Notes: generated by a model not told the origin, from the sequence alone. Positions 2,433 through 51,608 are shown, counted from the stretch's first letter. The stretch is DNA of 64,000 nt from Alphaproteobacteria bacterium (GCA_017511715.1 JAFWJF010000002.1:135781-199780), one strand, 5' to 3'. Program-made: numbers and translations.

Positions 2433-2562
2433 AAATAAAACCCTTGTTCGTTGTCTGAGTAATGATATTAAGCACAGAATAAAATTGCAAGAAGTTTTTA
2501 TATCCGCTTGCAAGGTTATGTTTTTTTTGATAAAATAATATAAAAATGTGGGAAGGTTTCTT

Positions 2563-4800
2563 ATGAAAATGATAAAGATTTTGCCGGTTTTATTGGTGTT
2601 TCCATTGGTTGTATATGGGGCTTCTCGTACGGATTCAACTGTTCGTGTTGGTGTTGGACGTAATAACCAAGCGGGCGCAAGGATGCCTGCTATTTCTGGG
2701 GCCGTTGTGCAGGCCGCGTTGGAAAAAATTTCTGTTTCAGGTGGGCAAAAGCCCAAGTCAGAAACAAGTTCTGCGACCGTGGTTGCATCTGTGCCTGTGG
2801 CGACAGCATCTTCTGATGCAACTGTTTCGGCACCGGTTGATGCAGAGACTGTATCAGTTGTGGCAAGTGGTGATTGCAGGGATGCTTATCGTGCGTGTAT
2901 GGACAGTTTTTGTTTGTTGGAAGAAAGCCAGGGTGAAAGATGTGCGTGTTCAGATAATATAGAATACGCAAAAGGTAAGATTAAGACAATTCTTGCCATC
3001 CAAGCAGAAGCAGATAAGTTGTATACAGAAGGTGTTGAACGCGAACAATTGGGTGCAAAAGCCCGTTTGGTGTTTGCAGATAATAATACAAGTACAAAGA
3101 TTTCAAGTGTCGATTTTATGGGGTGGTTGTACGGCGATAAAGAAGATGTTGAAGAAAGTGGTGATGTTGGCGAAGATGTTGAATTAGGGGACGATTTGTA
3201 TCAGATGGCGGTTAAATATTGTTCTGCTGAACTGGATTCTTGTGGAAGCAAGGCCGAAATGGAATCTATGTTGTATTCGCGCATGATAGTCCAAGATTGT
3301 AAGAATTATGATTCTTATTTGGCAGACCAAAAACTTAATGCGGAATCTAATAAGCGCACCGCAGAATCTGCGGTTCGTAAAGCGCGTCTTGAAATGTTGG
3401 ATACAACGAACAAATACAATCGTGGTGAATGTTTGTTGGCGTTTCGTTCTTGTGTTGCAGACAAAGGTGGATGTGGTACGAATTTCGAGAATTGCCTTGA
3501 TAAAAAATTGTTGCAACGTCGTTCAAATGCCTGTGAAAATGTGTTAGACCAATGTATGGCAGTGCGTGATTATGTTATTGAAGATTGGACGGCAGAATCA
3601 AAAAGTATCTTGGCAGAGGCTGAAAAATATGCCGACAAAAACGAACGTTTAACATGTCTGGCGCGTGCACAAAACTGTTTGGAAGAGGGGTGCTCTACAT
3701 CAACAAACGCGGAATGTTTGACCAATGTAAATGTTGCGGCTGGAATCTGTCCTGTAATCACAGAATGTGATGCAAAAATTCCTGGTTTTCAGGCTGTTAT
3801 AAATGATAAATTGGGATATTTACAGATTAAGTTTTGTGAAAATGACATAGATAAATGCTTGCAAGATAAATGTGGTGTTGATTTTACAAAGCCTGAATGT
3901 GTTGGTAAACGCCCGTATGAAATAGCAGCACTTTGTCCCCAGGATATGTTCTCGTCTTGTAAGAATGTCGAACAATACGATATAATTGTACAGGCGGCAC
4001 TTTTGCAGATGGATTATCAAATATTGCAAGGTTGTGTGAATTATTTTGGTGAACAGTTAGGCAAAGTTTGTGGGACAGATATGGCGTGTTTACCGATTGA
4101 TGCAACCGTTGAATCTTTGACAGATTTGCCGGATACAGAAGAGGGTTTGCAAAATTTGCGTAGAACAGTCGTTGCGAATTCTGACGCGGCGGTTGAAGAA
4201 TTCTTTGTTCAATTTGAACAGGATAAGACAGTTGCAGCATGTGCTGATATGCAAAGTGCAGAGGTCGCAAAGAAGAGTTCTGTGAAACTTAAAGATAAAG
4301 AACCTTTGGGGGTAAGTGTGTTTAATACTGCTAAATTGTTGGCAAAAATGGCAGCGGAAAATCGCAATTTGCGTGAACTTGATTCTAAGATAGCGGAAAT
4401 TGCACGCGAAAAAGATTTGGAAGAAGCCAAAAAGATTTGTTTAAGTACATATAAGCCAGAAAAACCAAAAGGTTCAACAGATGACGATTCAGACGAAGCG
4501 AAATCTAATTACAGTTATATACGCACCGTGTCGTTTGAACCTGATTTGCGTAACTGTCATGTTTGTCGCAGACAGCAAGTTTGTGAAGAAGGTGGCGAAT
4601 CTGCAGCGACATCTGCATTGAAAGCGGCGGCGGGTGGTTTGTCTGCCGGGGCGGCTTCTGGAACAATGGTCAGTGCTGGATGGGGAACTGCGATTGGTGG
4701 ACTGGTTGGCGGAATCGGTGGCGCAGTGATGGGCGCAATGTCTGGTGGTAAAAAACAGTTCTGTCAAGAAGTTGAATCTTGTGAAGATATAAATATGTAA
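2563..4800 (+). CDS. Cys-rich secreted protein, CMDxFC-signature family, paralog 2
   Basis: GGAAGG RBS 6 nt before ATG 2563 (the ORF-track start 2548 is a GTG). Signal peptide [24 protein letters not shown]-rich linker, then [27 protein letters not shown]. More than 50 Cys. Tail ...[16 protein letters not shown]... followed by the Gly-zipper segment [42 protein letters not shown]. Confidence 0.7.
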
Positions 4801-4819
4801 AGAAACAAAAGGGAAGAAA

Positions 4820-7285
4820 ATGAGAAAAATATTAGGTTTCGGTTTTTTTGCAAGTTTGTTGGTGGCCTTGGTTGGTGTGGTGGATGCCGGTGCCGCAACA
4901 AAAAATACTGTTGTGAAAAAGCAGGCTGCATTACAGGCCGGAACAAAAGTGCGCACCAGATTAGCACCAACTGGTATTTATGATGAGGCTTGTTATAACC
5001 AATATTTTGGTTGTATGGATCAGTTTTGTATCGTTGATAATGAAAATGGTGGTTCGTGTATGTGCAGTGATGATGCCGCAAAATATGACGAACAGTTGGA
5101 AGCAATAAAAAATACTTTGGTGGAAGCAGAACGTATCAGCACAGAAGAGGTTGAAAAGATTCAAGCGGGGGCCAATGCTGATATTATATTTAATGGCGGT
5201 GAACGTATTTATAACGAAGAGGGTAATGTTGTAAAAGTCGGGGAAAAACCGAAAACACAAGTCACACTTTCGTCGTTTTCGTTGTTTGACACAGAGGAAG
5301 AAGATGTTGACGAATGGGTTGATATTGATTTATCTGATAAGGTAGGAAGGTCTTTGTACAATGCTGCGCATCGTTTGTGTGTTGAACAAATGTCAGAATC
5401 TTGCGACAAAGATATGATGATGCTGACCCAGTTGTATTCTCGTCAAATTATTTCTGATTGCAAGGGTTTGGCAAATTCCATTGCGCAAAAGAAACAAGAA
5501 GCGGATAGTATTTTAGCGAAAGCAAAGGCGGCGGTGCGCGGTGCATTGAAAGAAAGTTTTGAAGAAGCCAATAAATATGATCGCGGAACATGCATGGTTG
5601 AATATAAAAAATGTATGCGCAGTGAAGATGCTTGTGGGGCAAATTGGGAAAATTGTGTCTTTACAATTGCCTCTGAAAACATGCAAAACAATGCTGCAGA
5701 AAGCGTTGCCGGAACAAAAGTTGATACGATTAACACATATGATATAACCGCATCGACAATGGAAATATTAGAATCTAAACGTTTTATCTGTGAAAAAGTT
5801 TTAGATAATTGTATGGCGGTTCGTAATTATGTTTGGAATGATTTCTTGCGTGAATCTGCGCCAACAATTCGTTTGGCAGAACAAAATATAGAATCACAAA
5901 AACGTCAATCGTGTTTAAGCGATATTTCAGATTGTATCCAAAAGGCATGTAAAGATGATATCGTTGGCAAAGGCGAAGCAACAATGGATGCATGTCTTGC
6001 CCGTCCAGATATGGCACGTTCGTTCTGCAAAATTCAAATTGATCCATGCGAAAGAATGGAACCTCAAATTTGGGATTATGTAAAATCTAAATTGGCGGCA
6101 ATGCGTGTTGATGTTTGCACCCAGGAAGTTAAAGATTGTATCACGGATGAAAACAGATGCGGCAAAGATTTTATGAATTGTATTGGTATGGATTTCAAAT
6201 ATATTCATGATATGTGCCCACTTGATAAATTAGTGGTCTGCAAACAGGCAAACCCAGATTTCCAAATGTCTGATTTAGATTCTATGTTAATGGGGCTTTA
6301 TTTGAATATTGATAACAAGGCACTTGAAAACTGTGAAAATCTGGCAGAAATGAAAATGGCGGAATTATGTGGGTCAACAACAGATTGTAATGTTTTTGCC
6401 GCAGATGAATATCTGGGGACAAATTCAATCAGGTCCCAAAAAGACGGCAGTATATATCGTGTGACAGGTATGATTTCATTTGGTTCAATAAAGATGGGTA
6501 ATGCCACAGGCAGTGTGAAAGATAACGGCAAAGTTTTGTTGCCTGGTGAAATTGGAGTCAAAGATTATATCAGGGAAGTTAAAAAGAATAATAGAAGTGT
6601 AGAAAATGCCGATGCGATAATATCTTCGATTGAAGAAGAATTGAATAATATCGAAGGAACAATTAACAGGGCAATATCTTTGATAGAATCAGATCAACAA
6701 ATACAATATTGTATCAATGGTCGTGATTTATCTCAAATCAATGGTCAAAAAGCGAGTGCAAGAAATACAACAACGGCAAGATTCCCGAATTTGTTAAACC
6801 AGTATCGTGTGATTATTGGTATGGCTGCATTACGCAAGGCGCAAGATAACTATAACAAAAAAGTAAATGAAGAAATAGCGGAAGCCGCCAGAAATTCTTC
6901 TGTAGATCTTGCACAATATTTGTGTCAGAGAATTGCGGATGCAGGTTCAACATCCAGTAGGGATAACAAAATTATTGATGAAACGCCGTTGACCCCACCA
7001 TATGCGATATCTTATGATGTCGGTTCGGGGCTTAGCACAAAAGATTTGATTGCAAATGGTGCTGGCACTTCGGTAAAGACATCCGGTGTTGGTGGTGGTG
7101 AAACGGGAACTAGTATAAGCACACTTGTTAATGCGTCATTTGACCGCGAAAAAAGAAATTGTCATATTTGCCGTACTATAACAGCGGAAGCGTGTTCGCG
7201 CAAAGGTGGCAGTTGGTTCCGTACACGTGATATTAATTGTAAAACTGATGTTCATGAACCAAATTGTGAAGATGTCAAGATGTAG
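4820..7285 (+). CDS. Cys-rich secreted protein, CMDxFC-signature family, paralog 3
   Basis: Starts 20 nt after the stop of paralog 2, so likely co-transcribed. Signal peptide, then CYNQYFGCMDQFCIVDNENGGSCMCSD. Shares blocks with paralog 2: LYSR.I..DCK, RG.C....C.....CG.N.ENC, CMAVR.YV. C-terminal motif ...KRNCHICRT... Confidence 0.7.
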   Translation: MRKILGFGFFASLLVALVGVVDAGAATKNTVVKKQAALQAGTKVRTRLAPTGIYDEACYNQYFGCMDQFCIVDNENGGSCMCSDDAAKYDEQLEAIKNTLVEAERISTEEVEKIQAGANADIIFNGGERIYNEEGNVVKVGEKPKTQVTLSSFSLFDTEEEDVDEWVDIDLSDKVGRSLYNAAHRLCVEQMSESCDKDMMMLTQLYSRQIISDCKGLANSIAQKKQEADSILAKAKAAVRGALKESFEEANKYDRGTCMVEYKKCMRSEDACGANWENCVFTIASENMQNNAAESVAGTKVDTINTYDITASTMEILESKRFICEKVLDNCMAVRNYVWNDFLRESAPTIRLAEQNIESQKRQSCLSDISDCIQKACKDDIVGKGEATMDACLARPDMARSFCKIQIDPCERMEPQIWDYVKSKLAAMRVDVCTQEVKDCITDENRCGKDFMNCIGMDFKYIHDMCPLDKLVVCKQANPDFQMSDLDSMLMGLYLNIDNKALENCENLAEMKMAELCGSTTDCNVFAADEYLGTNSIRSQKDGSIYRVTGMISFGSIKMGNATGSVKDNGKVLLPGEIGVKDYIREVKKNNRSVENADAIISSIEEELNNIEGTINRAISLIESDQQIQYCINGRDLSQINGQKASARNTTTARFPNLLNQYRVIIGMAALRKAQDNYNKKVNEEIAEAARNSSVDLAQYLCQRIADAGSTSSRDNKIIDETPLTPPYAISYDVGSGLSTKDLIANGAGTSVKTSGVGGGETGTSISTLVNASFDREKRNCHICRTITAEACSRKGGSWFRTRDINCKTDVHEPNCEDVKM

Positions 7286-7290
7286 TTAAA

Positions 7291-7314
7291 ACCGCCCGTT
7301 TGGGCGGTTTTTTG
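7291..7314 (+). terminator. rho-independent terminator
   Basis: CCGCCCgtttGGGCGG hairpin followed by TTTTTT, directly after the stop at 7285. Confidence 0.7.
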
Positions 7315-7395
7315 GTAAATCGTTCCTAGATATTTTTGTGCCTGTGTTTGTTATAATTCAGACATGGAAAACAAAATAACAAATGGAGAAAAATC

Positions 7396-7749
7396 ATGAA
7401 AAAAATATCTGTTATGGCTTTGATTGCGTGTATGCCAATTTGTGGCGCGTTCGCTGGTCCCGGTAAAAATATGAACAATAATATGAATACACATCCTGCG
7501 GTTTGGAATGTCACAGAAGTTATTTCTTTGCCAGATGATACACCGGTTGTGATGCGTGGTCGTATAACAAAAAATATGGGAAACAATATTTTTGTTTTTG
7601 AGGATGCTTCTGGAACAATTATGATGGAAATCGATGAAGAATCTTGGAACGGTAATACGGTTCGTGTTGATGATGTTGTGACCGTTTATGGTAATGTAGA
7701 CAAAGGTTCTAATTATACTGAAATCGATGTTGAATCTATTGTAAAATAA
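7396..7749 (+). CDS. BOF/YgiW family periplasmic OB-fold protein
   Basis: About 117 aa with a signal peptide. Size and the pattern ...NIFVFEDASGTIMMEIDEESW...VTVYGNVDKG...TEIDVESI match the YgiW/BOF (DUF388) fold. Confidence 0.65.
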   Translation: MKKISVMALIACMPICGAFAGPGKNMNNNMNTHPAVWNVTEVISLPDDTPVVMRGRITKNMGNNIFVFEDASGTIMMEIDEESWNGNTVRVDDVVTVYGNVDKGSNYTEIDVESIVK

Positions 7750-7776
7750 AAAATGCCCGGTTGGGCATTTTTTATT
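7750..7776 (+). terminator. rho-independent terminator
   Basis: AAAAATGCCCggttGGGCATTTTTTA hairpin plus T-run. Confidence 0.7.
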
Positions 7777-7820
7777 TGTTCTTTCTTTTTATATCTTTTT
7801 ATGGTATAATTATGCCCATA

Positions 7821-8801
7821 ATGAAAAACAAAAAATCTTTATTTTCTGTTGCAATGCTTTTGCTGTGCGCACCGGCGTTTGCAGGTTGGCAATATGACGG
7901 TTATTATGTTGATGATGGCTATTACGAAGATGATGGTTCGCGTCTTACAGTAAGTTTGCGCGGTGGGTTATCGTTGGCAAATGCCAAGATGAAAAATGAA
8001 GTCGGCAATTTGGATGCTTATTATTATGTTAACCCGACAAGTGGTGCCGCGGTTTCATTGCGATACTTCACAGACGAAGCAGATGCAGAAGCAAACGGTT
8101 TTACAGATGTTGCTGTGGGTAATATCAGCAGTTTACCTGTGAAAGAAAAATTTTCTAAAACCGCTTTTACTGCGGGGGCAAGTATAGGTTTTACTGTGCC
8201 GAATCGTCCACAGTGGCGATTGGAAGCCGGGTATGATTATATTTCCGAAACAGAATATAATCAGGTTCCTTTGTTCGAAGGCGAAATGAATGTGCGTGGC
8301 GAATTCAACGGAACAATACATGTTGCAAGCAGTGGCGTGACATCAACAATATCAACAGATGTAATATCTGCGATGGCATACTATGATTTTTTTGACGGGA
8401 ATAAAAAACAATTAAATAAAATAATTCCTTATGTTGGTTTAGGGGTCGGTTATGCGACTTCGCGTACAACAATGAAGTTGTCTGATATTTATGGCGACTT
8501 GTCAACAGATTCTAATTTGCTGAATTATGGAACGGCTGATTCAAGTGGAATAATACAATTTGAACCTCCCGCTGATTCGTCTAAATATCCGACTTCTACA
8601 AATGTTGCAGCAATCGGTGCAATTGGTGCGTCATATGGGATAAGCGAATATACTTTCCTTGATTTCAGTGCGCGTTTTATGTACATCCCAACAATAAAGT
8701 GGAATCTGGTTAATTCTGATGGAACACAACATCGCGAATGGTTCAGTGCTGAAAATATGATATACACCAATTTAATGCTTGGTTTGCGTTTCGAATTTTA
8801 A
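7821..8801 (+). CDS. outer-membrane beta-barrel protein (OmpA-like/porin family)
   Basis: Signal peptide MKNKKSLFSVAMLLLCAPAFA, alternating hydrophobic beta-strand pattern, C-terminal ...LMLGLRFEF with terminal Phe. An extended -10 box TGgTATAAT at 7802-7810 supports the downstream ATG rather than the ORF-track start 7761. Confidence 0.55.
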   Translation: MKNKKSLFSVAMLLLCAPAFAGWQYDGYYVDDGYYEDDGSRLTVSLRGGLSLANAKMKNEVGNLDAYYYVNPTSGAAVSLRYFTDEADAEANGFTDVAVGNISSLPVKEKFSKTAFTAGASIGFTVPNRPQWRLEAGYDYISETEYNQVPLFEGEMNVRGEFNGTIHVASSGVTSTISTDVISAMAYYDFFDGNKKQLNKIIPYVGLGVGYATSRTTMKLSDIYGDLSTDSNLLNYGTADSSGIIQFEPPADSSKYPTSTNVAAIGAIGASYGISEYTFLDFSARFMYIPTIKWNLVNSDGTQHREWFSAENMIYTNLMLGLRFEF

Positions 8802-8812
8802 TCGATTGTTTT

Positions 8813-9895
8813 TTATGGTTCATTAAACAAACGGGCAGGGTCAACAGATTTGTTGCCACGGCGTACTTCCAAGTACATTTCGGGTTTGTTTTCGTTCATT
8901 CTGCCAATCGGTTCGCCGGCCAAGACTTCCTGACCTACAATTGCATCAATTGACCCCATGTTTGTCATCACAGTATTATATCCGTTTTTGTGGGACATGA
9001 TTATAACTTTGCCAAAGCCACGGAAACTGTCTGCGAATTTTACAACGCCATCAGCTGGTGCCATAACCAATGCATCGCCGCGCGTGCGTATGCGCCATCC
9101 GTCTGATTTTAAGCCCAGTGCTGTCTTTTCGCCATATCGGACAACCAGTTTTCCGCGGACAGGGACATTTAATTTCCGTTTGGAAAATTTTGCGTCGCTG
9201 GACATTTCTGACGATCCAACCCCGGCAGACAATTCAGAAATATTTTTAGCGCGTGCAGATAATTTTTTGAGTTTATCTTGCAGGGCAATTTGTTGGTTTT
9301 TCAATTTTTCGTTTTGTGCGCTGCGTGTTTTCAATAATTTATCCAGTTCATTTTTTTCAGCGGAATATTTTTTCGCACTTCTATCAAGTTTTTCTTTTTC
9401 ATTTGTTCGTTCATCGTGGATTTTATCAAGCGTTTTTAATTTTTGGGTCGCATCCATTATCTGATTATCAAATTTATCTGATAGCGAAGCCAGCAAGACA
9501 GAAGTCAGCACATAATCATGCATTGTTTGTGAATCAAAATTTGGGTTGTTTGCAATATACAGCATGCTGGCTGTTGCTTCGGCTATGCCGTTATGGCTGG
9601 CGTTTAATTCGGCATTTATTTTATCGCGCTGATTGTCTAGTTCTGTAATGCGTTTAAGCAGGGCGCCACGTTGTTCTTCCAAAGAACTTACTTTGTCAGC
9701 GGTTTTTACCAACTGTTTTTTTGTCTTTTCCACGTCTTTGGTTGAATTTTTCAGTTGTTGTTCAATTTTTTTATTCTGTATTTCTGTTTGTTTTATCTGG
9801 TTCTGAATCTTGGTCAGTTCTGTGTTTGCGGCAAGTCCTGGCAGGCTAGTGCTGCAAAAAATGACACTGTAAAGAATAAATTTTGTTTTCGACAT
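8813..9895 (-). CDS. M23/LytM-family murein hydrolase activator (EnvC-like, coiled-coil + LytM domain)
   Basis: Signal peptide, a long Q/K/E-rich coiled coil, and a C-terminal LytM-like domain (...GWRIRTRGDALVMAPADGVVKFAD..GFGKVIIMSHKNGYNTVMTNMGSI...). Confidence 0.7.
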   Translation of the reverse strand: MSKTKFILYSVIFCSTSLPGLAANTELTKIQNQIKQTEIQNKKIEQQLKNSTKDVEKTKKQLVKTADKVSSLEEQRGALLKRITELDNQRDKINAELNASHNGIAEATASMLYIANNPNFDSQTMHDYVLTSVLLASLSDKFDNQIMDATQKLKTLDKIHDERTNEKEKLDRSAKKYSAEKNELDKLLKTRSAQNEKLKNQQIALQDKLKKLSARAKNISELSAGVGSSEMSSDAKFSKRKLNVPVRGKLVVRYGEKTALGLKSDGWRIRTRGDALVMAPADGVVKFADSFRGFGKVIIMSHKNGYNTVMTNMGSIDAIVGQEVLAGEPIGRMNENKPEMYLEVRRGNKSVDPARLFNEP

Positions 9896-21483: not shown

Positions 21484-21549
21484 TTATACCCATGCAACAA
21501 AAATTAAAATACCCAAATGGGTGTTTGAATTTTTGGTTGGGGTACACGG
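21484..21549. repeat. 66-bp direct repeat copy A (duplicate of tRNA-Gln 3' end plus downstream terminator region)
   Basis: ttatacccaTgcaacaaaaattaaaaTacccAAaTgggtgtttgaatttttggttggggtacacgg. About 90% identical to 21715..21781. Confidence 0.8.
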
Positions 21550-21714
21550 TGCCTTGATAAACAATAAATAAAATCAAAAAAATCTTGTGAACTTTGATTT
21601 TTTAAGATTTTTTTAATTGTTTATCTGCGTACTCGCTTGCGCGGCAATCGTGACGATTTTGGTGCGTTGCACTTCCAAAATCTACTGCTTGTCGAACTTG
21701 CGGTTCTTGTCTCG

Positions 21715-21781
21715 TTATACCCAAGCAACAAAAATTAAAACACCCGCAAGGGGTGTTTGAATTTTTGGTTGGGGTACACGG
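21715..21781. repeat. 66-bp direct repeat copy B, overlapping the genuine 3' end of tRNA-Gln
   Basis: See copy A. Includes the acceptor 3' half, CCA and the tRNA terminator hairpin. Confidence 0.8.
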
Positions 21782-21839
21782 ACTCGAACCGCGATATACA
21801 GAGTCAGAGTCTGCTGTTCTACCATTAAACTATACCCCA
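21766..21839 (-). tRNA. tRNA-Gln (anticodon CUG)
   Basis: Rev-comp TGGGGTATAGTTTAATGGTAGAACAGCAGACTCTGACTCTGTATATCGCGGTTCGAGTCCGTGTACCCCAACCA. U1:A72 acceptor pair, anticodon loop CUCUGAC, T-loop GGTTCGAGTCC, encoded CCA. Confidence 0.8.
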
Positions 21840-45920: not shown

Positions 45921-46961
45921 TTATCTGTATAATGGTTCGGTTGGTCGAACATGGCAACCGTTTTTGCGTTTAAGTTCAATCGCGTTTTTATATCCGCGAC
46001 TGACAGCGCCTTTATAGCGTTGCTGTGCTACTTTTTGTAAAAAGGCATCACGTTCGTTTAACCAATCATTATGTATGTCGCCTTGATAATTATTTACAGC
46101 CCGTATCATTTCAGAATCGACAGATGATGTTTTCTTAGGAAGCCCTAGAAAAGTTCTAAATTGTTGTAATGCCGTGCCAGGACCACTGGCCATGCCGGCC
46201 AAGAATACATCTGTGGCAATAACGTCAGGTAAACGTTCGAAACCATAGGGTTTCCAGTATTTTTCATAATAGACAGTTTCTGCCTCTGCGCGTGAATTTA
46301 CCCGAACGCCTGCACATTGTTTTCCAGAACCGATGCCATAACAAGTATAACCGCAACGGTCGTTTTTTATTGTTCCACATGCGCCTTCTTTTCTGAATAT
46401 AGTAATCAAGCCTTTTTCCAGGGCAGGGTGTATTTTTTCATATTTTCCCGTGGTCAAAATTGTGTTTGTAAAATTATTGTCGCGTGCTGCAGGATAGCAC
46501 GAACCGCCGACTATAAAATTATTTTCAATCACATCGCCACCACCAATCGTTCTTCCAGAAAAGTGTGATGGTTGCTGTTGACCGGTTTGTGTTGGCGAAG
46601 GGAGTGTCGGGCCTGGTGTGGTTTGTGTGCCGGCTTGTGTGGTATGGCATATTTTTGTATCGTCAGGATATTTTGCACAGTAGGTATCGTGTGGCAGGTT
46701 TTGCCTGTCGCTTTCTTGTTGTTTCTGTTCTTGGTCCATTTGGTCAATGATACGGTCAGTGTAAACTTCTTCGCCTGGGACGATATTTAATTCTTGATAT
46801 GCCTTTTTATCAAGCAATGGTTTGTATCCTTCGCGTGCAATATCAATGCGTGCTTTGAAAGACATATCTTGAAAAGTTCCCGGAAACGATGCCACAGACA
46901 ATTTTCCCTGTGCGGGGCTGCACAGGACAAATAAACAAGCAAGATAAAAAATCTTTTTCAT
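45921..46961 (-). CDS. secreted GH108-family muramidase-like protein with peptidoglycan-binding C-terminal domain
   Basis: Signal peptide. FRKEGACGTIKNDRCGYTCYGI aligns to the GH108 catalytic block (L.HEGGYVNDP.DPGG.T.YGI). ...YYEKYWKPYGFERLPDVIATDVFLAGMASGPGTALQQFRTFLGL matches the PG_binding_3 region. Confidence 0.55.
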   Translation of the reverse strand: MKKIFYLACLFVLCSPAQGKLSVASFPGTFQDMSFKARIDIAREGYKPLLDKKAYQELNIVPGEEVYTDRIIDQMDQEQKQQESDRQNLPHDTYCAKYPDDTKICHTTQAGTQTTPGPTLPSPTQTGQQQPSHFSGRTIGGGDVIENNFIVGGSCYPAARDNNFTNTILTTGKYEKIHPALEKGLITIFRKEGACGTIKNDRCGYTCYGIGSGKQCAGVRVNSRAEAETVYYEKYWKPYGFERLPDVIATDVFLAGMASGPGTALQQFRTFLGLPKKTSSVDSEMIRAVNNYQGDIHNDWLNERDAFLQKVAQQRYKGAVSRGYKNAIELKRKNGCHVRPTEPLYR

Positions 46962-47055
46962 TATCGTTTCTTATTTTATCATGAAAAGTGTGAAAAAATA
47001 ATGTTTTTTGTGTCGATTGTGTTGAAAATATTTTTCTTTATATGAATAAAACCCT

Positions 47056-47085
47056 TTGACAAACACGTGTTTTGTGTTATCCTGT
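47056..47085 (+). promoter_or_regulatory. candidate sigma70 promoter (TTGACA -35 with downstream TATCCT-like -10)
   Basis: TTGACAaacacgtgttttgtgtTATCCT upstream of ORF 47122. Confidence 0.35.
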
Positions 47086-47121
47086 GGCTCTGATGCGTAA
47101 AGAACAAAATAAGAGGGCAGC

Positions 47122-47511
47122 ATGAACGGTTATATTGGTTGTTCCAAGAAAGATATTGAATATTTGATTGAAACTGTAAATGCGCCGGGCATTTTGGTAA
47201 AACGGCGTTCGTTGCCAAAGAAAAAATCAGGTGTTCGTTATAGTTTTCTGGATGGGGGAAAAGATTTGTTCTCTTTGACATGTGTGCGTTTGTCAGACAG
47301 AGATTCTATGGAAATATCTATAAGCAGTGGGGCAGATGTTTCTGATGCTTTGCGAGAGGGCGATGATGCTTATCGAAAGGCGTGTGTTCTTTATCAGTTG
47401 GCAGAAAAAATGTATGAAGCACAGCGTGGAACATCAATAAAGTCGCAGAAAGAATCTGTTCAATTACAGCAAATAAAAATTTTTTGTGAAATATTTTCTC
47501 ATATCAAATAA
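47122..47511 (+). CDS. hypothetical cytoplasmic protein
   Basis: 129-aa ORF with an AGAGGG RBS, followed by a strong bidirectional terminator. Confidence 0.4.
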   Translation: MNGYIGCSKKDIEYLIETVNAPGILVKRRSLPKKKSGVRYSFLDGGKDLFSLTCVRLSDRDSMEISISSGADVSDALREGDDAYRKACVLYQLAEKMYEAQRGTSIKSQKESVQLQQIKIFCEIFSHIK

Positions 47512-47547
47512 AAAAACACCGCATAAAATTATGCGGTGTTTTTTTAG
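47512..47547. terminator. bidirectional rho-independent terminator
   Basis: AAAAAAACACCGCATaaaattATGCGGTGTTTTTTT. Confidence 0.7.
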
Positions 47548-47556
47548 GGAGTATTA

Positions 47557-47826
47557 TTATCTGCTTTTTTCGTTTTGTTTTTTTCGTGACCAAATGCCTG
47601 CTGCGCCAGCAGCTAATACCGCGGAACCCAACCATAAAGCTTTGAGTGGGTTTTTGTTTGTGATAACATTTTTTTCGTACCCAAGGTTTTGATTTTCGGC
47701 TGTCGCAGCATCGTTGTAATCCATTGTGCCTGCTGCACCTAACATCAACAAGAAGCCAGTAACGGCAAGTGTTGTATAAACAGCATTAAGTACATCAAAA
47801 GACTTTTTTTTGTTTGTGTTTTCCAT
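47557..47826 (-). CDS. small membrane protein (two TM helices)
   Basis: 89 aa with two hydrophobic segments and a basic C-terminus. Confidence 0.4.
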   Translation of the reverse strand: MENTNKKKSFDVLNAVYTTLAVTGFLLMLGAAGTMDYNDAATAENQNLGYEKNVITNKNPLKALWLGSAVLAAGAAGIWSRKKQNEKSR

Positions 47827-47951
47827 GTTAAAATCCTTTTTTATTGTTGTTTATGTATAAATATAACACAAAATATCCGTTTGTCAAGTGTTGTGGCTAA
47901 TGTTTTGTATTGGTTGACAAATGTGTTGTTTGGTGTTATTCTGCTGTGGCT

Positions 47952-48794
47952 ATGGGACAAGAACTCGTTCTTAGTTTTAAAATCACAAATTGGTGCAATT
48001 TAAGTTGCGCCCACTGTTGTGAGTGCAGCAACTCTCGAAATAAACCAAATTTTATGCCGTTGGAAAAATTAGACAAGTATTTGGCAGAATCAAGAACTTT
48101 GCCAATTATCCCAAACGAATTGGTTTGTATTACTGGAGGGGAAACTTTGGCACCGTATATGTATGAAGAACCAGACTATATACCAAACGCATTAGATTTA
48201 ATTTATTCTTATAAATATGTTCCAACAATAAAAACCAACGGTACTTGGGGTAATGACGGAAAGTTTCGACAGAAGATTTTGTCTGATATCGGGGCAAAAG
48301 CCTATAAATATGGCAAATTAATAACTCTTGATATTTCTGTGGACGAATTTCACGATAATTACAGTGGTGTTGCACGAATTATTCAAGATGTATTGTTATC
48401 GTCCAGATTAAGTTTTGCGATAAGATTTTGCTTGGTAGGTTTTAATACACCGGCTTCTTTGGTGGCATTAAATCGCGTGCAAAGCGAATTGCAAAAATCA
48501 GGTTTCGTTGTCAAAAAAACGATTGCTAATGATTGGATGATAGAGGCACCAAATGCTTCTTATGGTGTATATGTGTATAACGATTTTTCGTCAAAAATAT
48601 ATAACCTTGGTCGCGCAAAACAGACAAATGTTTACAATGATGAATATAGCCCTTATTTGATTCATGAATCAGATTGTTTCCAGATAGACAATGAAGACAA
48701 CGCGATTCTAAACTATTTTTCTCGTGAACAAATAAATAACAGACCATTAAGTGAGATTTTTCGTTCTTTGATGTGGCAACAAAGGCACAGATAA
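47952..48794 (+). CDS. radical SAM protein
   Basis: CNLSCAHCC (CxxxCxxC) near the N-terminus, GGE motif ITGGETL. Function unassigned. Confidence 0.55.
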   Translation: MGQELVLSFKITNWCNLSCAHCCECSNSRNKPNFMPLEKLDKYLAESRTLPIIPNELVCITGGETLAPYMYEEPDYIPNALDLIYSYKYVPTIKTNGTWGNDGKFRQKILSDIGAKAYKYGKLITLDISVDEFHDNYSGVARIIQDVLLSSRLSFAIRFCLVGFNTPASLVALNRVQSELQKSGFVVKKTIANDWMIEAPNASYGVYVYNDFSSKIYNLGRAKQTNVYNDEYSPYLIHESDCFQIDNEDNAILNYFSREQINNRPLSEIFRSLMWQQRHR

Positions 48795-48797
48795 TAA

Positions 48798-48868
48798 TTG
48801 AATTTCGTGGTCGTGCTGATCTAGCTTTTCTCGAGCCAAGATTGTAGAGATTGGAAGAGAGATCGTAG
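48798..48868. repeat. ~70-bp direct repeat (left copy) bounding the isochorismatase+sodC pair
   Basis: ttgaatttcgtggtcgtgctgatctagcttttctcgagccaagattgtagagattggaagagagatcg, about 85% identical to 50062..50132. Confidence 0.7.
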
Positions 48869-48880
48869 TGTTTAAGAAAT

Positions 48881-49321
48881 TTATATAATATTTTTAGTTC
48901 CGATATTTCTTTCCATGATTTTAATGGCTTTTTCATGTAATTCTTGTGTCGTGCTGAAACATAAATTTTTCAGAATAATTGGTCGAATATTATTTTCTAT
49001 CAAATCCAAGGCGGTTTTATATACGCAAGCATCTGTATCAAATCCGCAGATATATATTTCATCAAATTGTTTCATTTCTGGAATGAAAGCTGAATAACCT
49101 ATTTTGGTATATATAGTTGCGTCTGGTTTTGGGTTAAAGGCAAGATTTTCATCTTTATACCCAGGCCAATCAAGGAATCTCAGAAGTGGGGAATTGTTTT
49201 TTGTATATTTCGACACATAAACAATGTCGTAATCATATTGAATCTTTTCAATTTCTTTCGCGATTGTTGGTTTCGTTACCGCAGATTTTTGGACATCTAT
49301 GATTAGTAAAACTTTTGCCAT
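48881..49321 (-). CDS. isochorismatase-family cysteine hydrolase (nicotinamidase-like)
   Basis: MAKVLLIIDVQKS... (Asp of the triad), ...IYICGFDTDACV (catalytic Cys). Confidence 0.7.
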   Translation of the reverse strand: MAKVLLIIDVQKSAVTKPTIAKEIEKIQYDYDIVYVSKYTKNNSPLLRFLDWPGYKDENLAFNPKPDATIYTKIGYSAFIPEMKQFDEIYICGFDTDACVYKTALDLIENNIRPIILKNLCFSTTQELHEKAIKIMERNIGTKNII

Positions 49322-49480
49322 TTGGGTGCCTTTCGTTATATTAAATTATAACACAAATAATTTGAAAACCAGGTAAAAAATTGCTCGGGTACACCATATT
49401 GAAAACGTTCCTTTTGCGAAAAATATATGTTTTCTTATATTTATCATACGGACATATCTAATTGATGCAGGAGAACGCAA

Positions 49481-50005
49481 ATGAAAAAAATCTTGTTATA
49501 TTCGACATTATTATTAACAGGTTGTAACAATTATAACCCCAGTGCACATTCGGATATTTATTTGACAGGCACATCTGGCATGGGACAAAAAATAGGCGAA
49601 GTTTTCTTTACAGACACACCATCGGGGCTGTTGATAAATGTCAATTTGCATAATCTGCCGGCGGGCGAACATGGTTTCCATATTCACGAAAAACCAAATT
49701 GTGGTGCGGATGTTGATGCCCAGGGGAACCTGCAACCCGCACTCAAAGCGGGTGGTCATTATGACCCCGATAAAACTGGACATCACATGGGTCCCAATCA
49801 ACCCGGGGGACACAAAGGCGATTTGCCGGTCTTGAACGTGTCCGCGGACGGCACTGTTAACACATCTTTTACTGTTCCAAATCTGAAAGTCCAAGAAATT
49901 AAAAACCGATCAATAATGATTCATGCAGGTGGCGATAATTACAGTGATACCCCCGCTGCGCTGGGCGGTGGTGGTGCTCGTATCGCCTGTGGGGTGATTA
50001 AGTAG
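49481..50005 (+). CDS. sodC: periplasmic Cu/Zn superoxide dismutase
   Basis: Lipoprotein signal LLLTGC. GFHIHEKPNCG and GGHYDPDKTGHHMGP (Cu/Zn His ligands), GGGGARIACGVI (disulfide Cys). Confidence 0.9.
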   Translation: MKKILLYSTLLLTGCNNYNPSAHSDIYLTGTSGMGQKIGEVFFTDTPSGLLINVNLHNLPAGEHGFHIHEKPNCGADVDAQGNLQPALKAGGHYDPDKTGHHMGPNQPGGHKGDLPVLNVSADGTVNTSFTVPNLKVQEIKNRSIMIHAGGDNYSDTPAALGGGGARIACGVIK

Positions 50006-50040
50006 GCCGGACTTTCTTTGTGTTCTTGTTTTTATGAAAC

Positions 50041-50132
50041 GCAAAAAACCGACCATAAAGGTCGGTTTGAATTTTCTGGTCGTGCTGGTCTAGCAGTTCT
50101 CGAGCCGAGATTTTGAAGATTGGAAGAGAGAT
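50041..50132. repeat. terminator hairpin plus ~70-bp direct repeat (right copy)
   Basis: cgaccataaaggtcgg hairpin, then tttgaattttctggtcgtgctggtctagcagttctcgagccgagattttgaagattggaagagagatt. Confidence 0.7.
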
Positions 50133-50180
50133 TAAAAACACTTATAAATAAAAACCGTCCAGAACGGACGGTTTTCTATG

Positions 50181-50993
50181 TTATCTTGAATCGCGACCTT
50201 GTGATATTACAATATTATTATCATTCGATTTGTTCAACTTTGCTGTTGCCTTGCGGAATATTTCTGCTATAAAAAATTTCTTTTCAAATATACCTTTTAA
50301 TACTGCTTTATCTTCGTCTGAAAAAGCTTTTGCTGTCAATATTGTTGGCATGTTTTCCCGGATTGATTTTACCAGTTGTTTATTCATGCTATCTTTCACT
50401 ATGTCTTGTAATTTTTGTGCGATTTTCTGTTTGTCGTTAGCAGGTGTATTAACATATGTGAACAATATCAATTTTACCAAATTTGACATATCTTTATCCT
50501 GTTTGTTCCAAGCAATTTTTTTTGCCACTGATAATATTTGGTACCTTGTTGTCAAAGGCATTTCTTTTGGTAATTTAGTCTGTGAAAAATAAGGATCGTT
50601 CACAAATTTTTCAACAGCACCACTTTCAAAACCTTTGATTGTTTCCAGTTCTTCTTTTGCATATCTAAATACATTTTCTATCTCTGCTAATTGTTTTGAT
50701 GTCTCGTCAGACATTTTCCATTGTTCTGCAGATAAGGATGATTTATCGATTGACATAGAATCGCGTTGCAATTTGATAAACTCTGATTTAATGGGGCCAT
50801 CAAAAAGATGTTCCATCTTAGATTCCAAAGAAATCAATTCTTCAAAGGACATTTGTGAGTACGGTGACTCTTTGCTGTTTTTGTTGTTTTTTCGTATGCT
50901 TTCAAAAGAAGCCCCTAAAGTTTCTTGCGCTTTAGATTTTAAATCTTGAATTCTTTTTATTATTTCTTCGATAGTAAATTTTTGATCTGCCAT
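50181..50993 (-). CDS. hypothetical cytoplasmic alpha-helical protein
   Basis: 270-aa ORF with no signal peptide. Flanked by the att-like repeats. Confidence 0.45.
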   Translation of the reverse strand: MADQKFTIEEIIKRIQDLKSKAQETLGASFESIRKNNKNSKESPYSQMSFEELISLESKMEHLFDGPIKSEFIKLQRDSMSIDKSSLSAEQWKMSDETSKQLAEIENVFRYAKEELETIKGFESGAVEKFVNDPYFSQTKLPKEMPLTTRYQILSVAKKIAWNKQDKDMSNLVKLILFTYVNTPANDKQKIAQKLQDIVKDSMNKQLVKSIRENMPTILTAKAFSDEDKAVLKGIFEKKFFIAEIFRKATAKLNKSNDNNIVISQGRDSR

Positions 50994-51120
50994 ATTGTGT
51001 TCCTTTTTGTTCGTATTTACTTAAATTATATCATAAAAAGTTCGAGAAATCACCAAAAATATCGTTTTTCAAAATTGGTTAGTTCGAACTCGTTGTAAGT
51101 ATTAGAAAACAAAACAAAAA

Positions 51121-51165
51121 CCGCTCTTAATGAGCGGTTTGAACTCTCTGGTCGGGGCGAAGGCC
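51121..51165. repeat. hairpin plus tRNA-Pro 3'-end-like fragment (copy i)
   Basis: ccgctcttaatgagcgg tttgaactctctggtcggggcgaagg. The last 18 nt match the tRNA-Pro acceptor/T-arm 3' segment. Confidence 0.65.
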
Positions 51166-51310
51166 TCCTCGATACGCAATAATAAAAATCTATAAAAACT
51201 CGTATCTACAAACTCCGTTTTTATGATTTTTCTAATTGTGTATTCTCGTATTGGTCATGCGCAACTGCGTTGCTCTGACCGATCCTTTCGCCACTTTTAG
51301 AGAAAATTAA

Positions 51311-51362
51311 AACCACCACAAAAGTGGCGGTTTGAATTTTCTGGTCGGGGCGAAAGGATTGT
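51311..51362. repeat. hairpin plus tRNA-Pro 3'-end fragment (copy ii; 20/20 nt identical to the tRNA 3' end)
   Basis: ccaccacaaaagtggcgg tttgaattttctggtcggggcgaaaggatt. Confidence 0.7.
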
Positions 51363-51531
51363 TCCGCTTCGCTTCACTCCCTTGGCTCATTCGCTCCGCT
51401 CACCGGCATACTCTCGTCTGCCTTTCGCCTGCGGGTCGAACCTTCTTCCCGAATGTTCTTTGAATCCTTTCGCTCAGAACTTAAAAGATATAATAAAAAA
51501 CACCGCATAAAGCGGTCTTTCTTATTATATC

Positions 51532-51608
51532 TGGTCGGGGCGAAAGGATTCGAACCTTCGACACCTTGGTCCCAAACCAAGTACTCTACCAGACTGAGCT
51601 ACACCCCG
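51532..51608 (-). tRNA. tRNA-Pro (anticodon UGG)
   Basis: Rev-comp CGGGGTGTAGCTCAGTCTGGTAGAGTACTTGGTTTGGGACCAAGGTGTCGAAGGTTCGAATCCTTTCGCCCCGACCA. Anticodon loop UUUGGGA, T-loop GGTTCGAATCC, encoded CCA. Confidence 0.85.

Follow-up and report, generated by a model that had tools for sequence, protein, structure and literature searches.

How reduced genomes (below about 1 Mb) gain accessory genes is an open question, and one concrete route is offered by a locus behind a tRNA-Pro(UGG) gene in a 64-kb stretch of alphaproteobacterial DNA (GCA_017511715.1, JAFWJF010000002.1:135781-199780; the whole stretch is called the window here). The segment of about 4.6 kb adjoining this gene (46962-51531) is probably an additive genomic islet seeded by the tRNA. 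Its modules each start with a terminator (type T1 or T2) and end with a copy of the tRNA 3' end that is degenerate to a varying extent, and they are of two kinds, namely non-coding mini-elements (A and B) and gene cassettes (one with the open reading frame ORF270, the other with sodC and an isochorismatase-family gene). The accessory genes concerned are an oxidative-stress enzyme, hydrolases, and helicase/nuclease and restriction-type genes. Coordinates are positions in the window, the locus is read on the tRNA strand (minus) unless stated, and L-numbers denote related loci or contigs that were fetched. From the tRNA gene outwards, the features are:

51532..51608, minus strand: tRNA-Pro(UGG), the anchor (ARAGORN; Rfam RF00005, 65 bits)
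51486..51531, no strand assigned: terminator T2, a long bidirectional A/T-flanked hairpin directly after the tRNA
51361..51485, minus strand: mini-element A, non-coding, with an inverted tRNA-end copy (51463-51475) and a T-stem/loop copy, gaaggttcga (51436-51445)
51340..51360, minus strand: first copy of the repeated unit X, 21 of 21 nt identical to the tRNA 3' end (51530-51550)
51301..51339, minus strand: first T1 terminator, tail aaaattcaaacc and hairpin 51310-51333, with a motif common to 51136 and 50064
51162..51296, minus strand: mini-element B, a non-coding foldback whose inverted tRNA-end copy (51281-51292) pairs with the X copy at its 3' end
51147..51161, minus strand: second copy of X, 15 nt of the tRNA 3' end followed by divergence
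51112..51146, minus strand: second T1 terminator, tail gagagttcaaacc and hairpin 51118-51140
51034..51111, minus strand: mod, the conserved proximal cassette end, with GAGTTCGA and TTTCGAAC motifs, ending in gatataat (-10-like)
50137..51090, minus strand: exchanged block, comprising the 3' part of mod, ORF270 and a terminator (50151-50175)
50181..50993, minus strand: ORF270, without a Pfam or PADLOC match
50076..50136, minus strand: first copy of D, the distal end of the cassette, closed by the degenerate tRNA end cacgaccag
50040..50075, no strand assigned: third T1 terminator, hairpin 50046-50068, also downstream of sodC
49481..50005, plus strand (antisense to the tRNA): sodC, Cu/Zn superoxide dismutase with a lipoprotein-like N-terminus (PF00080, 1.8e-34)
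48881..49321, minus strand: isochorismatase-family hydrolase (PF00857, 2.9e-14)
48807..48867, minus strand: second copy of D, its tail gaaattcaa (48796-48806) shortened and without a hairpin

The tRNA gene encodes its CCA, and its last 21 nt are the unit X. Exact matches to its 3' end (TGGTCGGGGCGAA on the plus strand) occur in the 64 kb at 51149, 51342 and 51532 only, i.e., three against 0.05 expected by chance, a number reached in none of 100 shuffles. A longer motif that joins the foot of the terminator to the tRNA end, GGTTTGAAYTYTCTGGTCG, was found at 50064, 51136 and 51329, with none expected in the window. Because it recurs at 50064, the degenerate copy near 50070 is real and homologous, and all three further copies of the tRNA end that the initial annotation had described were recovered. 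The direct repeats of about 70 bp that it had placed at 48798 and 50062 are likewise real, spanning 66 nt with 86% identity (48798-48863 vs 50067-50132), but the second starts at 50067 and not at 50062; they flank the isochorismatase-family gene and sodC on both sides, as had been proposed. Two features had been overlooked, an identical architecture at tRNA-Gln (21.5-21.8 kb) and the intrinsic-terminator hairpin that each tRNA-end copy has directly after it. Ten terminator-like sites were counted in 3.1 kb against 2.1 expected, a five-fold enrichment. T2-type terminators also follow the tRNA in L002, L007, L010, L014 and L030, and 28 nt of the second T1 terminator are identical to the stretch directly after the tRNA in L066.

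The gene cassettes follow a common grammar of T1 terminator, promoter-like mod, cargo, D and degenerate tRNA end; each thus carries its own promoter-like module and terminator, and the cargo may lie in either gene orientation. By nhmmer, mod was found in 15 copies in the window and relatives, always after a T1 terminator, with more copies in metagenome contigs. Fifteen copies of D were found in the window and 10 relatives, all oriented as the tRNA. They fold no better than shuffles (z = +1.2 and 0.0), and by these values attC-like folding of D was ruled out. On the strand opposite to the tRNA, the D copies (48807-48867 and 50076-50136 in the window, 7483-7544 in L018) contain an open frame of 17-30 codons, ..SR[TA][DE]I[IVLM][KEQ]IGR[DE]I.., with synonymous Arg codons (cgg, cga, aga). 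Several copies, both of those in the window included, lack ATG, GTG or TTG in this frame, and no longer homologue was found. D may be the remnant of a gene 5' end, to judge from the frame. The cargo is unusual in composition: the GC content is 0.315 for the isochorismatase-family gene, 0.319 for ORF270 and 0.458 for sodC against 0.400+-0.026 for the core, and the islet genes are compositional outliers.

At least one block, that of ORF270, has been exchanged between species recently. The ORF had been called an orphan, and among 5.8 billion proteins it has a single homologue, which sits behind tRNA-Pro in a different species (L128). The block 50137-51090 is 95-100% identical to L128 in 40-nt windows, and its left edge lies at the GAGTTCGA motif of mod. 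The background nucleotide identity to L128 is 68% for the flanking PHP phosphatase-family gene (PHP below), 71.5% for the MotA/B-like genes and about 70% for the core. The second case is sodC, which is 90% identical in amino acids (84% in nucleotides) to that of L013, whose PHP is 61% identical. It is also present in the tRNA-Pro islands of L008 and L128, and in L128 it occupies the same relative position with background-level divergence (73%). The core of mini-element A, described below, is a further sign of transfer, being 93-97% identical between genomes whose PHP third codon positions are saturated. No homologue of the isochorismatase-family gene was found in any fetched locus. The comparison with relatives that had been called for thus gave a positive answer, both in the presence/absence variation at the tRNA-Pro locus and in the far greater similarity of sodC and ORF270 than of core genes.

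Hundreds of homologues of the flanking PHP-family protein, with 55-95% identity, are present in metagenome assemblies from gut and rumen that bear the label Alphaproteobacteria or Candidatus Enterousia. The host is a gut or rumen alphaproteobacterium near Candidatus Enterousia, order Rs-D84, with a reduced genome; Candidatus Enterousia itself belongs to that order, lives in the guts of farm animals and has, like its Rs-D84 relatives, genomes mostly below 1 Mb (PMC12306168). Such a host is not known to be intracellular, and the earlier framing of SodC as a factor of intracellular bacteria is unfounded.

In 13 related loci where tRNA-Pro adjoins PHP, 0-3 mini-elements (types A, B and C) come after the tRNA, each ending in the tRNA 3' end and a terminator, and the distance from a conserved GH108 lysozyme-like gene (45921-46961 in the window) to the tRNA ranges from 0.5 to 8 kb, filled mostly with singleton genes. 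About 30 related contigs show the module grammar behind tRNA-Pro; they differ in their cargo and in the number of modules, the cassettes again being ordered as T1, mod, cargo and D. Their cargo comprises helicase/nuclease, ADP-ribosylglycohydrolase, S51 peptidase, histidine phosphatase, kinase-like ATPase and outer-membrane barrel protein genes. One and the same cassette (mod, helicase, D) adjoins the tRNA in L056 and L093, stands behind A in L010 and is third in L066. In L093, the second-closest relative, it directly follows the tRNA with neither A nor B; the contig of the closest relative (L092, 95% PHP identity) ends within the tRNA. The T1-mod-cargo-D order was also seen in seventeen metagenome contigs with clear matches in a D motif search. 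Two traits of islands at tRNA genes (tDNA islands) are accordingly present, i.e., an intact tRNA at one end with direct repeats of its 3' segment, and presence/absence variation of the enclosed DNA between conserved flanks. The cassette ends are conserved and regular in every genome examined, which random decay of once-autonomous islands would not predict.

Nor is the architecture special to this tRNA: the window has it at tRNA-Gln as well, and relatives have it at four other tRNA species. The second instance in the window is:

21531..21839, minus strand: tRNA-Gln(CUG) instance, with the tRNA (21766-21839), a T1 terminator and a C/B-hybrid mini-element of about 190 nt

This mini-element ends in the last 16 nt of tRNA-Gln itself (21531-21546), and a second T1 follows just downstream of 21531. 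A repeat of the tRNA's own last 14 nt, about 90-230 nt downstream (mostly 164-176), was found for tRNA-Gln in the window and behind Pro-GGG, Arg, Ser and Gly tRNAs in relatives. Without exception, the end of the element corresponds to the local tRNA, and at least six tRNA species (Pro, Gln, Gly, Thr, Arg and Ser) are served by the element family with matching ends.

How could such an array be built? The account that we consider likely is an additive tRNA-Pro islet of non-autonomous modules with site-specific entry and a recombinase provided in trans. As judged from the architecture, modules would enter the tRNA gene through site-specific recombination in its T-loop/3'-end segment. A replacement 3' end would come with the new DNA, and the old end together with the older modules would be pushed away from the tRNA, while homologous recombination between conserved scaffolds would shuffle and mosaicise the cassettes. 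The recombinase would act in trans, with the best candidate being an approximately 500-aa tyrosine integrase carried by 9-10-kb elements in related genomes. The window itself contains no recombinase: PF00589 and PF00239 are absent from the 50 scanned ORFs, every islet gene included, and no tblastn match to the serine recombinase described below was obtained in it. Because the island has no integrase, its units would be non-autonomous remnants or satellites. The serial integration with loss of integrases that the initial annotation had proposed is largely right but incomplete: a variable island delimited by tRNA ends and without a recombinase in the window has held, and this core idea agrees with the published model of tycheposon-seeded islands, but the proximal tRNA-end copies close mini-elements and not degraded gene islands.

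Recombinases were found in the related genomes, where tRNA-3'-bounded elements measure 9-10 kb. The element of L099 (about 9.3 kb) consists of a tRNA-Thr 3' part, a terminator, an approximately 500-aa tyrosine integrase (PF00589), cargo, a serine recombinase (PF00239) and an 18-nt copy of the tRNA-Thr end. The same pair of integrase and serine recombinase is present in L094 (with DUF5906) and L097/98, together with DUF3768 genes, and in L089, which is truncated on the left, only DUF5906, DUF3768 and the serine recombinase are seen. The serine recombinase is a 199-aa protein of the resolvase type with at least 120 clusters at 84-98% identity in gut alphaproteobacterial assemblies, and the locus gives this abundant protein a chromosomal context, always beside a displaced tRNA end. 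A tandem 9-mer (gtgtcaagc-like) comes after its gene, and then, usually 110-230 nt downstream, a partial tRNA end, of Pro (L004), Gly (L049, L097), Gln (L080, L089-91, L095) or Thr (L099); in L080, the Gln end lies 2.3 kb away, after a restriction-modification insertion. The 9-mer also stands at the start of the integrase gene and is, by its position, a candidate arm-type binding site. Behind the tRNA-Pro of L004, this serine recombinase is carried by a unit of 5.3 kb that begins with T1-mod and closes with a B/D-like right end and a copy of the tRNA end. The small serine recombinase was considered as the integrase and dropped when the 500-aa tyrosine integrase was found at the tRNA-proximal end of full elements.

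Defence-like cargo was seen beside the serine recombinase, i.e., an NgoFVII restriction enzyme and methylase (L080 7658-9727), an AAA_14/DUF4143 ATPase (L085 7602-8939), and an 8xMP membrane protein with a 1061-aa protein (L004 5149-9130). These neighbours agree with a 2026 study in which small serine recombinases, retrieved with a different bait enzyme, marked defence genes, their role being not known (PMC13552941).

Several results weigh against the account of site-specific entry with a recombinase in trans. Neither an excised circle nor an attP junction was observed, nor an empty-site allele of the same strain. The search for an integrase elsewhere, which had been recommended, did yield the tyrosine integrase and the serine recombinase in related genomes, but at tRNA-Pro no autonomous element was found that combines mod/D-type ends with a tyrosine integrase; neither the serine recombinase nor the L099-type integrase had a match in the seventeen D-bearing metagenome contigs. 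The tie of the D cassettes to any recombinase is the single unit of L004, with the serine recombinase only. The near-identical block shared with L128 stops within mod and before D, in a scaffold (T1, 5' part of mod, D) that is 45-85% identical, a profile that points to exchange by recombination in a resident scaffold more than to the transfer of an entire T1-to-X unit. The mosaic structure of the helicase cassettes, with one breakpoint at a GTTCG motif within D, shows that homologous recombination is active at the locus. The cores of A and C lie precisely within the T-loop copy (GGTTCGA|core|ATCC), which simple attR scars fail to explain. Type C, moreover, has three helices with strong covariation: 88.8% of cells are paired vs 69.8% in shuffles, and double (compensatory) changes occur in 13 of 16 pairs, a level reached in none of 500 shuffles.

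Among known systems, the closest analogue is the tycheposon type of tRNA-anchored island, and the islet belongs to this known kind with unusually small and regular units, in a clade that has been little studied. In Prochlorococcus, a streamlined genome carries additive islands next to a small number of tRNA genes, among them tRNA-Pro(tgg); with each integration, older DNA is pushed further off the tRNA, partial tRNAs are scattered, most of the DNA has no integrase, and autonomous tycheposons have a tyrosine recombinase, primase/helicase genes and sometimes a small serine recombinase (10.1101/2020.12.28.424599). The tRNA-Pro islet is alike in being additive and tRNA-anchored, in its displaced older material and in its integrase-less DNA. 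The set of PF00589, DUF5906 and PF00239 occurs in related genomes, where elements (L094, L097-L099) have a tyrosine recombinase next to the tRNA, a replication module, cargo and partial-tRNA flanks; the window has no such element, and the likeness is one of gene content. The phylum and habitat, on the other hand, are different (gut Rs-D84 alphaproteobacteria here). The single-gene cassettes with conserved mod and D ends and a terminator each also set the islet apart, as do the palindromic non-coding mini-elements of about 125-135 nt, which were not found described in the parts of that report consulted. Relative to the tycheposon model, the regular cassette ends, the contrast in divergence between scaffold and cargo and the mini-element cores in T-loop copies go beyond it.

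Tandem accretion and att-flanked derivatives without an integrase (like cis-mobilizable elements, CIMEs) are known. In classical tDNA islands, integration splits the tRNA gene, the island restores the 3' end and the displaced 3' fragment lies at the far end (PMC4383910). Unlike in classical tDNA or Islander-type islands, displaced fragments stand every 0.2-1.3 kb here, two of the intervals are non-coding structured elements, and at least six tRNA species are served with matching ends.

A further-reaching proposal, which we hold only tentatively, is that Rs-D84 bacteria possess an integron-like tRNA-anchored system, in which standard-ended single-gene cassettes would be captured behind tRNA genes and reshuffled by a recombinase in trans and an additional tier of tiny, structured, palindromic A, B and C elements would insert exactly at T-loop-like GGTTCGA|ATCC sites of displaced tRNA ends, with termini mimicking the host tRNA. 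If true, the system would represent a class of non-autonomous mobile elements not described before, and genes would move in and out of genomes below 1 Mb largely by this route. As in integron arrays and the staphylococcal cassette chromosome (SCC)/rlmH arrays, the units are ordered, mostly single-gene, have conserved ends, stand at a fixed chromosomal site and have no recombinase of their own, and the same cassette occurs at different array positions. Unlike in integrons, however, there is no IntI beside the array (the neighbours are the PHP phosphatase-family gene and cassette genes), D is not attC-like, each cassette has its own promoter-like module and terminator with genes in either orientation, and the anchor is a tRNA 3' end.

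The mini-elements could also be explained in quite another way, although we judge this to be rather unlikely: A and B (and C elsewhere) would have arisen by tandem duplication or unequal crossing-over of the tRNA 3' end and terminator and would work as small RNAs with a tRNA-like 3' end, made by co-transcription or read-through, i.e., as processing decoys, sponges or regulators. Each element does end in the tRNA's own 3' end including CCA, with its own terminator, and since both A and B start with an inverted tRNA-end copy, the two ends of each come together in a helix of the acceptor/T-like kind. The folding of B is far stronger than that of shuffled sequences (z = -4.2), B is present in nine copies in the window and relatives (78-97% identity), and two B units stand in tandem in L005. 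The core of A (75 nt, 51361-51435) is placed exactly at the T-loop position, the sequence resuming at atcctttcgccccgacca after it, and it is 93-97% identical in L002, L010, L014 and L030, whose PHP genes are 68-75% identical with saturated third codon positions (only 51-60% identical); this is conservation like that of an RNA gene. However, A folds no better than shuffles (z = -1.1). The covariation of the type C helices also speaks for RNAs, but the helices could be plain palindromes, since 11 copies gave no asymmetry between sense and antisense folding, a result that is uninformative as a test of RNA against DNA. The only whole-element match in Rfam was RtT (RF00391), end to end over 51342-51486, at 21.6 bits (E = 0.87), and element A thus misses the gathering score of 45 bits. 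With permissive thresholds, Rfam returned tRNAs and sub-threshold noise including RtT, and nothing else, in the locus, four related loci and the whole window; type C fits no Rfam family. A convincing promoter was not found at the elements, and they are polymorphic in presence or absence even between close relatives. Moreover, the same cores are found behind five tRNA species with the local tRNA end, and also within D, which requires mobility and not local duplication.

Repeats of a comparable build are known from Escherichia coli, where the 178-bp repeats distal to tyrT stand behind a tRNA gene and each ends with about 19 nt of the tRNA 3' end including CCA. The likeness to these and to RtT consists in tRNA-end-terminated repeats behind a tRNA and in the weak end-to-end Rfam match on A. 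They differ in that the score falls far short of the threshold and that there is no relationship between the bodies; the present elements, moreover, are polymorphic, are found at many tRNAs and have a terminator each. Wherever context was available, the mini-elements stood only behind tRNA genes. The small size (A and B about 125-135 nt and palindromic), the non-coding content and the inverted tRNA-end termini of A, B and C resemble miniature inverted-repeat transposable elements; no transposase was identified for the three types, and scans of viral contigs for the A and C cores gave no match. The right end of B matches the right end of the serine-recombinase unit in L004. The cores of A, B and C may be DNA sites or RNAs. 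A transfer-messenger RNA (tmRNA) or two-piece tmRNA was considered on account of GGTTCGAC-type motifs in type C and rejected, as ARAGORN detected none and Rfam gave no tmRNA match. Other tiny inserts in or right after tRNA-end copies were noticed in L010 (about 9480-9560), L042/L043 (about 8470-8500), L005 (about 9230-9260) and L049 (about 1925-1975). Those of the cttcgccaaggcttcg... type lie between CCA and tail, and those of the gtcgcgat...gggcggagcgatgtgatttta type lie within the copy (L005) or about 50 nt after it (L049).

For the cassettes, an alternative as improbable in our estimation as the RNA explanation of the mini-elements is that T1-mod and D-X form an old, vertically inherited scaffold in which cargo is swapped by homologous recombination after DNA uptake, with no dedicated recombinase. 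The 99% identical core shared with L128 inside a 45-85% identical scaffold, the mosaic helicase cassettes and the position and background divergence of sodC in L128 are all as this would predict, and no recombinase in cis was found in any of about 30 arrays. On the other hand, array length and module order vary widely, and units are added rather than replaced. As would be expected of att sites, the tRNA-end delimiters change with the host tRNA (Pro, Gln, Gly, Thr, Arg, Ser), and integrase-bearing elements in related genomes use the same kind of boundary. Two breakpoints, one in mod and one in D, also coincide with the T-loop-like GTTCGA motif. In three ResIII/DEAD/VRR-NUC helicase genes (L056 7286-9754, L010 6744-9362, L066 4965-7355), the ends are 93-100% identical and the middle is 50-75% identical. 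Chance similarity or an assembly artefact at a repeat-rich tRNA locus is highly improbable even though short-read contigs often break at tRNA-Pro (L092, L009, L012) and the tRNA of L004 has an internal 13-nt duplication, as the observed repeat counts were reached in 0 of 100 shuffles and the grammar recurs in dozens of independent assemblies from different studies and hosts.

The duplication in L004 (9810-9899; gtagagtacttgg twice) causes ARAGORN to call a 90-nt tRNA-Thr; either it arose in the assembly, or the tRNA has been disrupted at a much-used integration site. In L008 (9557-12102), the tRNA-Pro is inverted with respect to PHP, and PHP is placed like the cargo of a cassette (mod, PHP, small ORF, D), with sodC next, which suggests an inversion between array repeats.

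The rest of the window is an ordinary core chromosome, with Rho, enolase, GroEL, FtsH, PFOR and ribosomal proteins S6 and L9. At 2548-8801 (plus strand), it contains three consecutive large ORFs (750, 821 and 346 aa) without a Pfam match at E <= 1e-5, with a 117-aa ORF between the second and the third. Beyond the second copy of D, the islet continues with:

46962..48806, no strand assigned: older distal part of the island, with a 129-aa ORF, an 89-aa ORF and a radical-SAM gene
47910..48794, plus strand: radical-SAM gene (Pfam), stop codon 48792-48794

The two ORFs and the radical-SAM gene each occur in only 2-3 relatives (synteny clusters cl10, cl11 and cl16; tblastn; Pfam). Between the two ORFs, a bidirectional terminator with a perfect 18-bp stem (47509-47546) has a 17-nt core (AAAAAACACCGCATAAA) identical to T2 at tRNA-Pro (51495-51511); no tRNA-end remnant stands beside it, nor were further ones found in the 46.9-47.96 kb searched. 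The radical-SAM protein gave the only PADLOC match among the six islet proteins, a weak one to prokaryotic viperins (pVip, E = 6e-5), and a homologue with 70% identity is located at the distal end of the L018 island.

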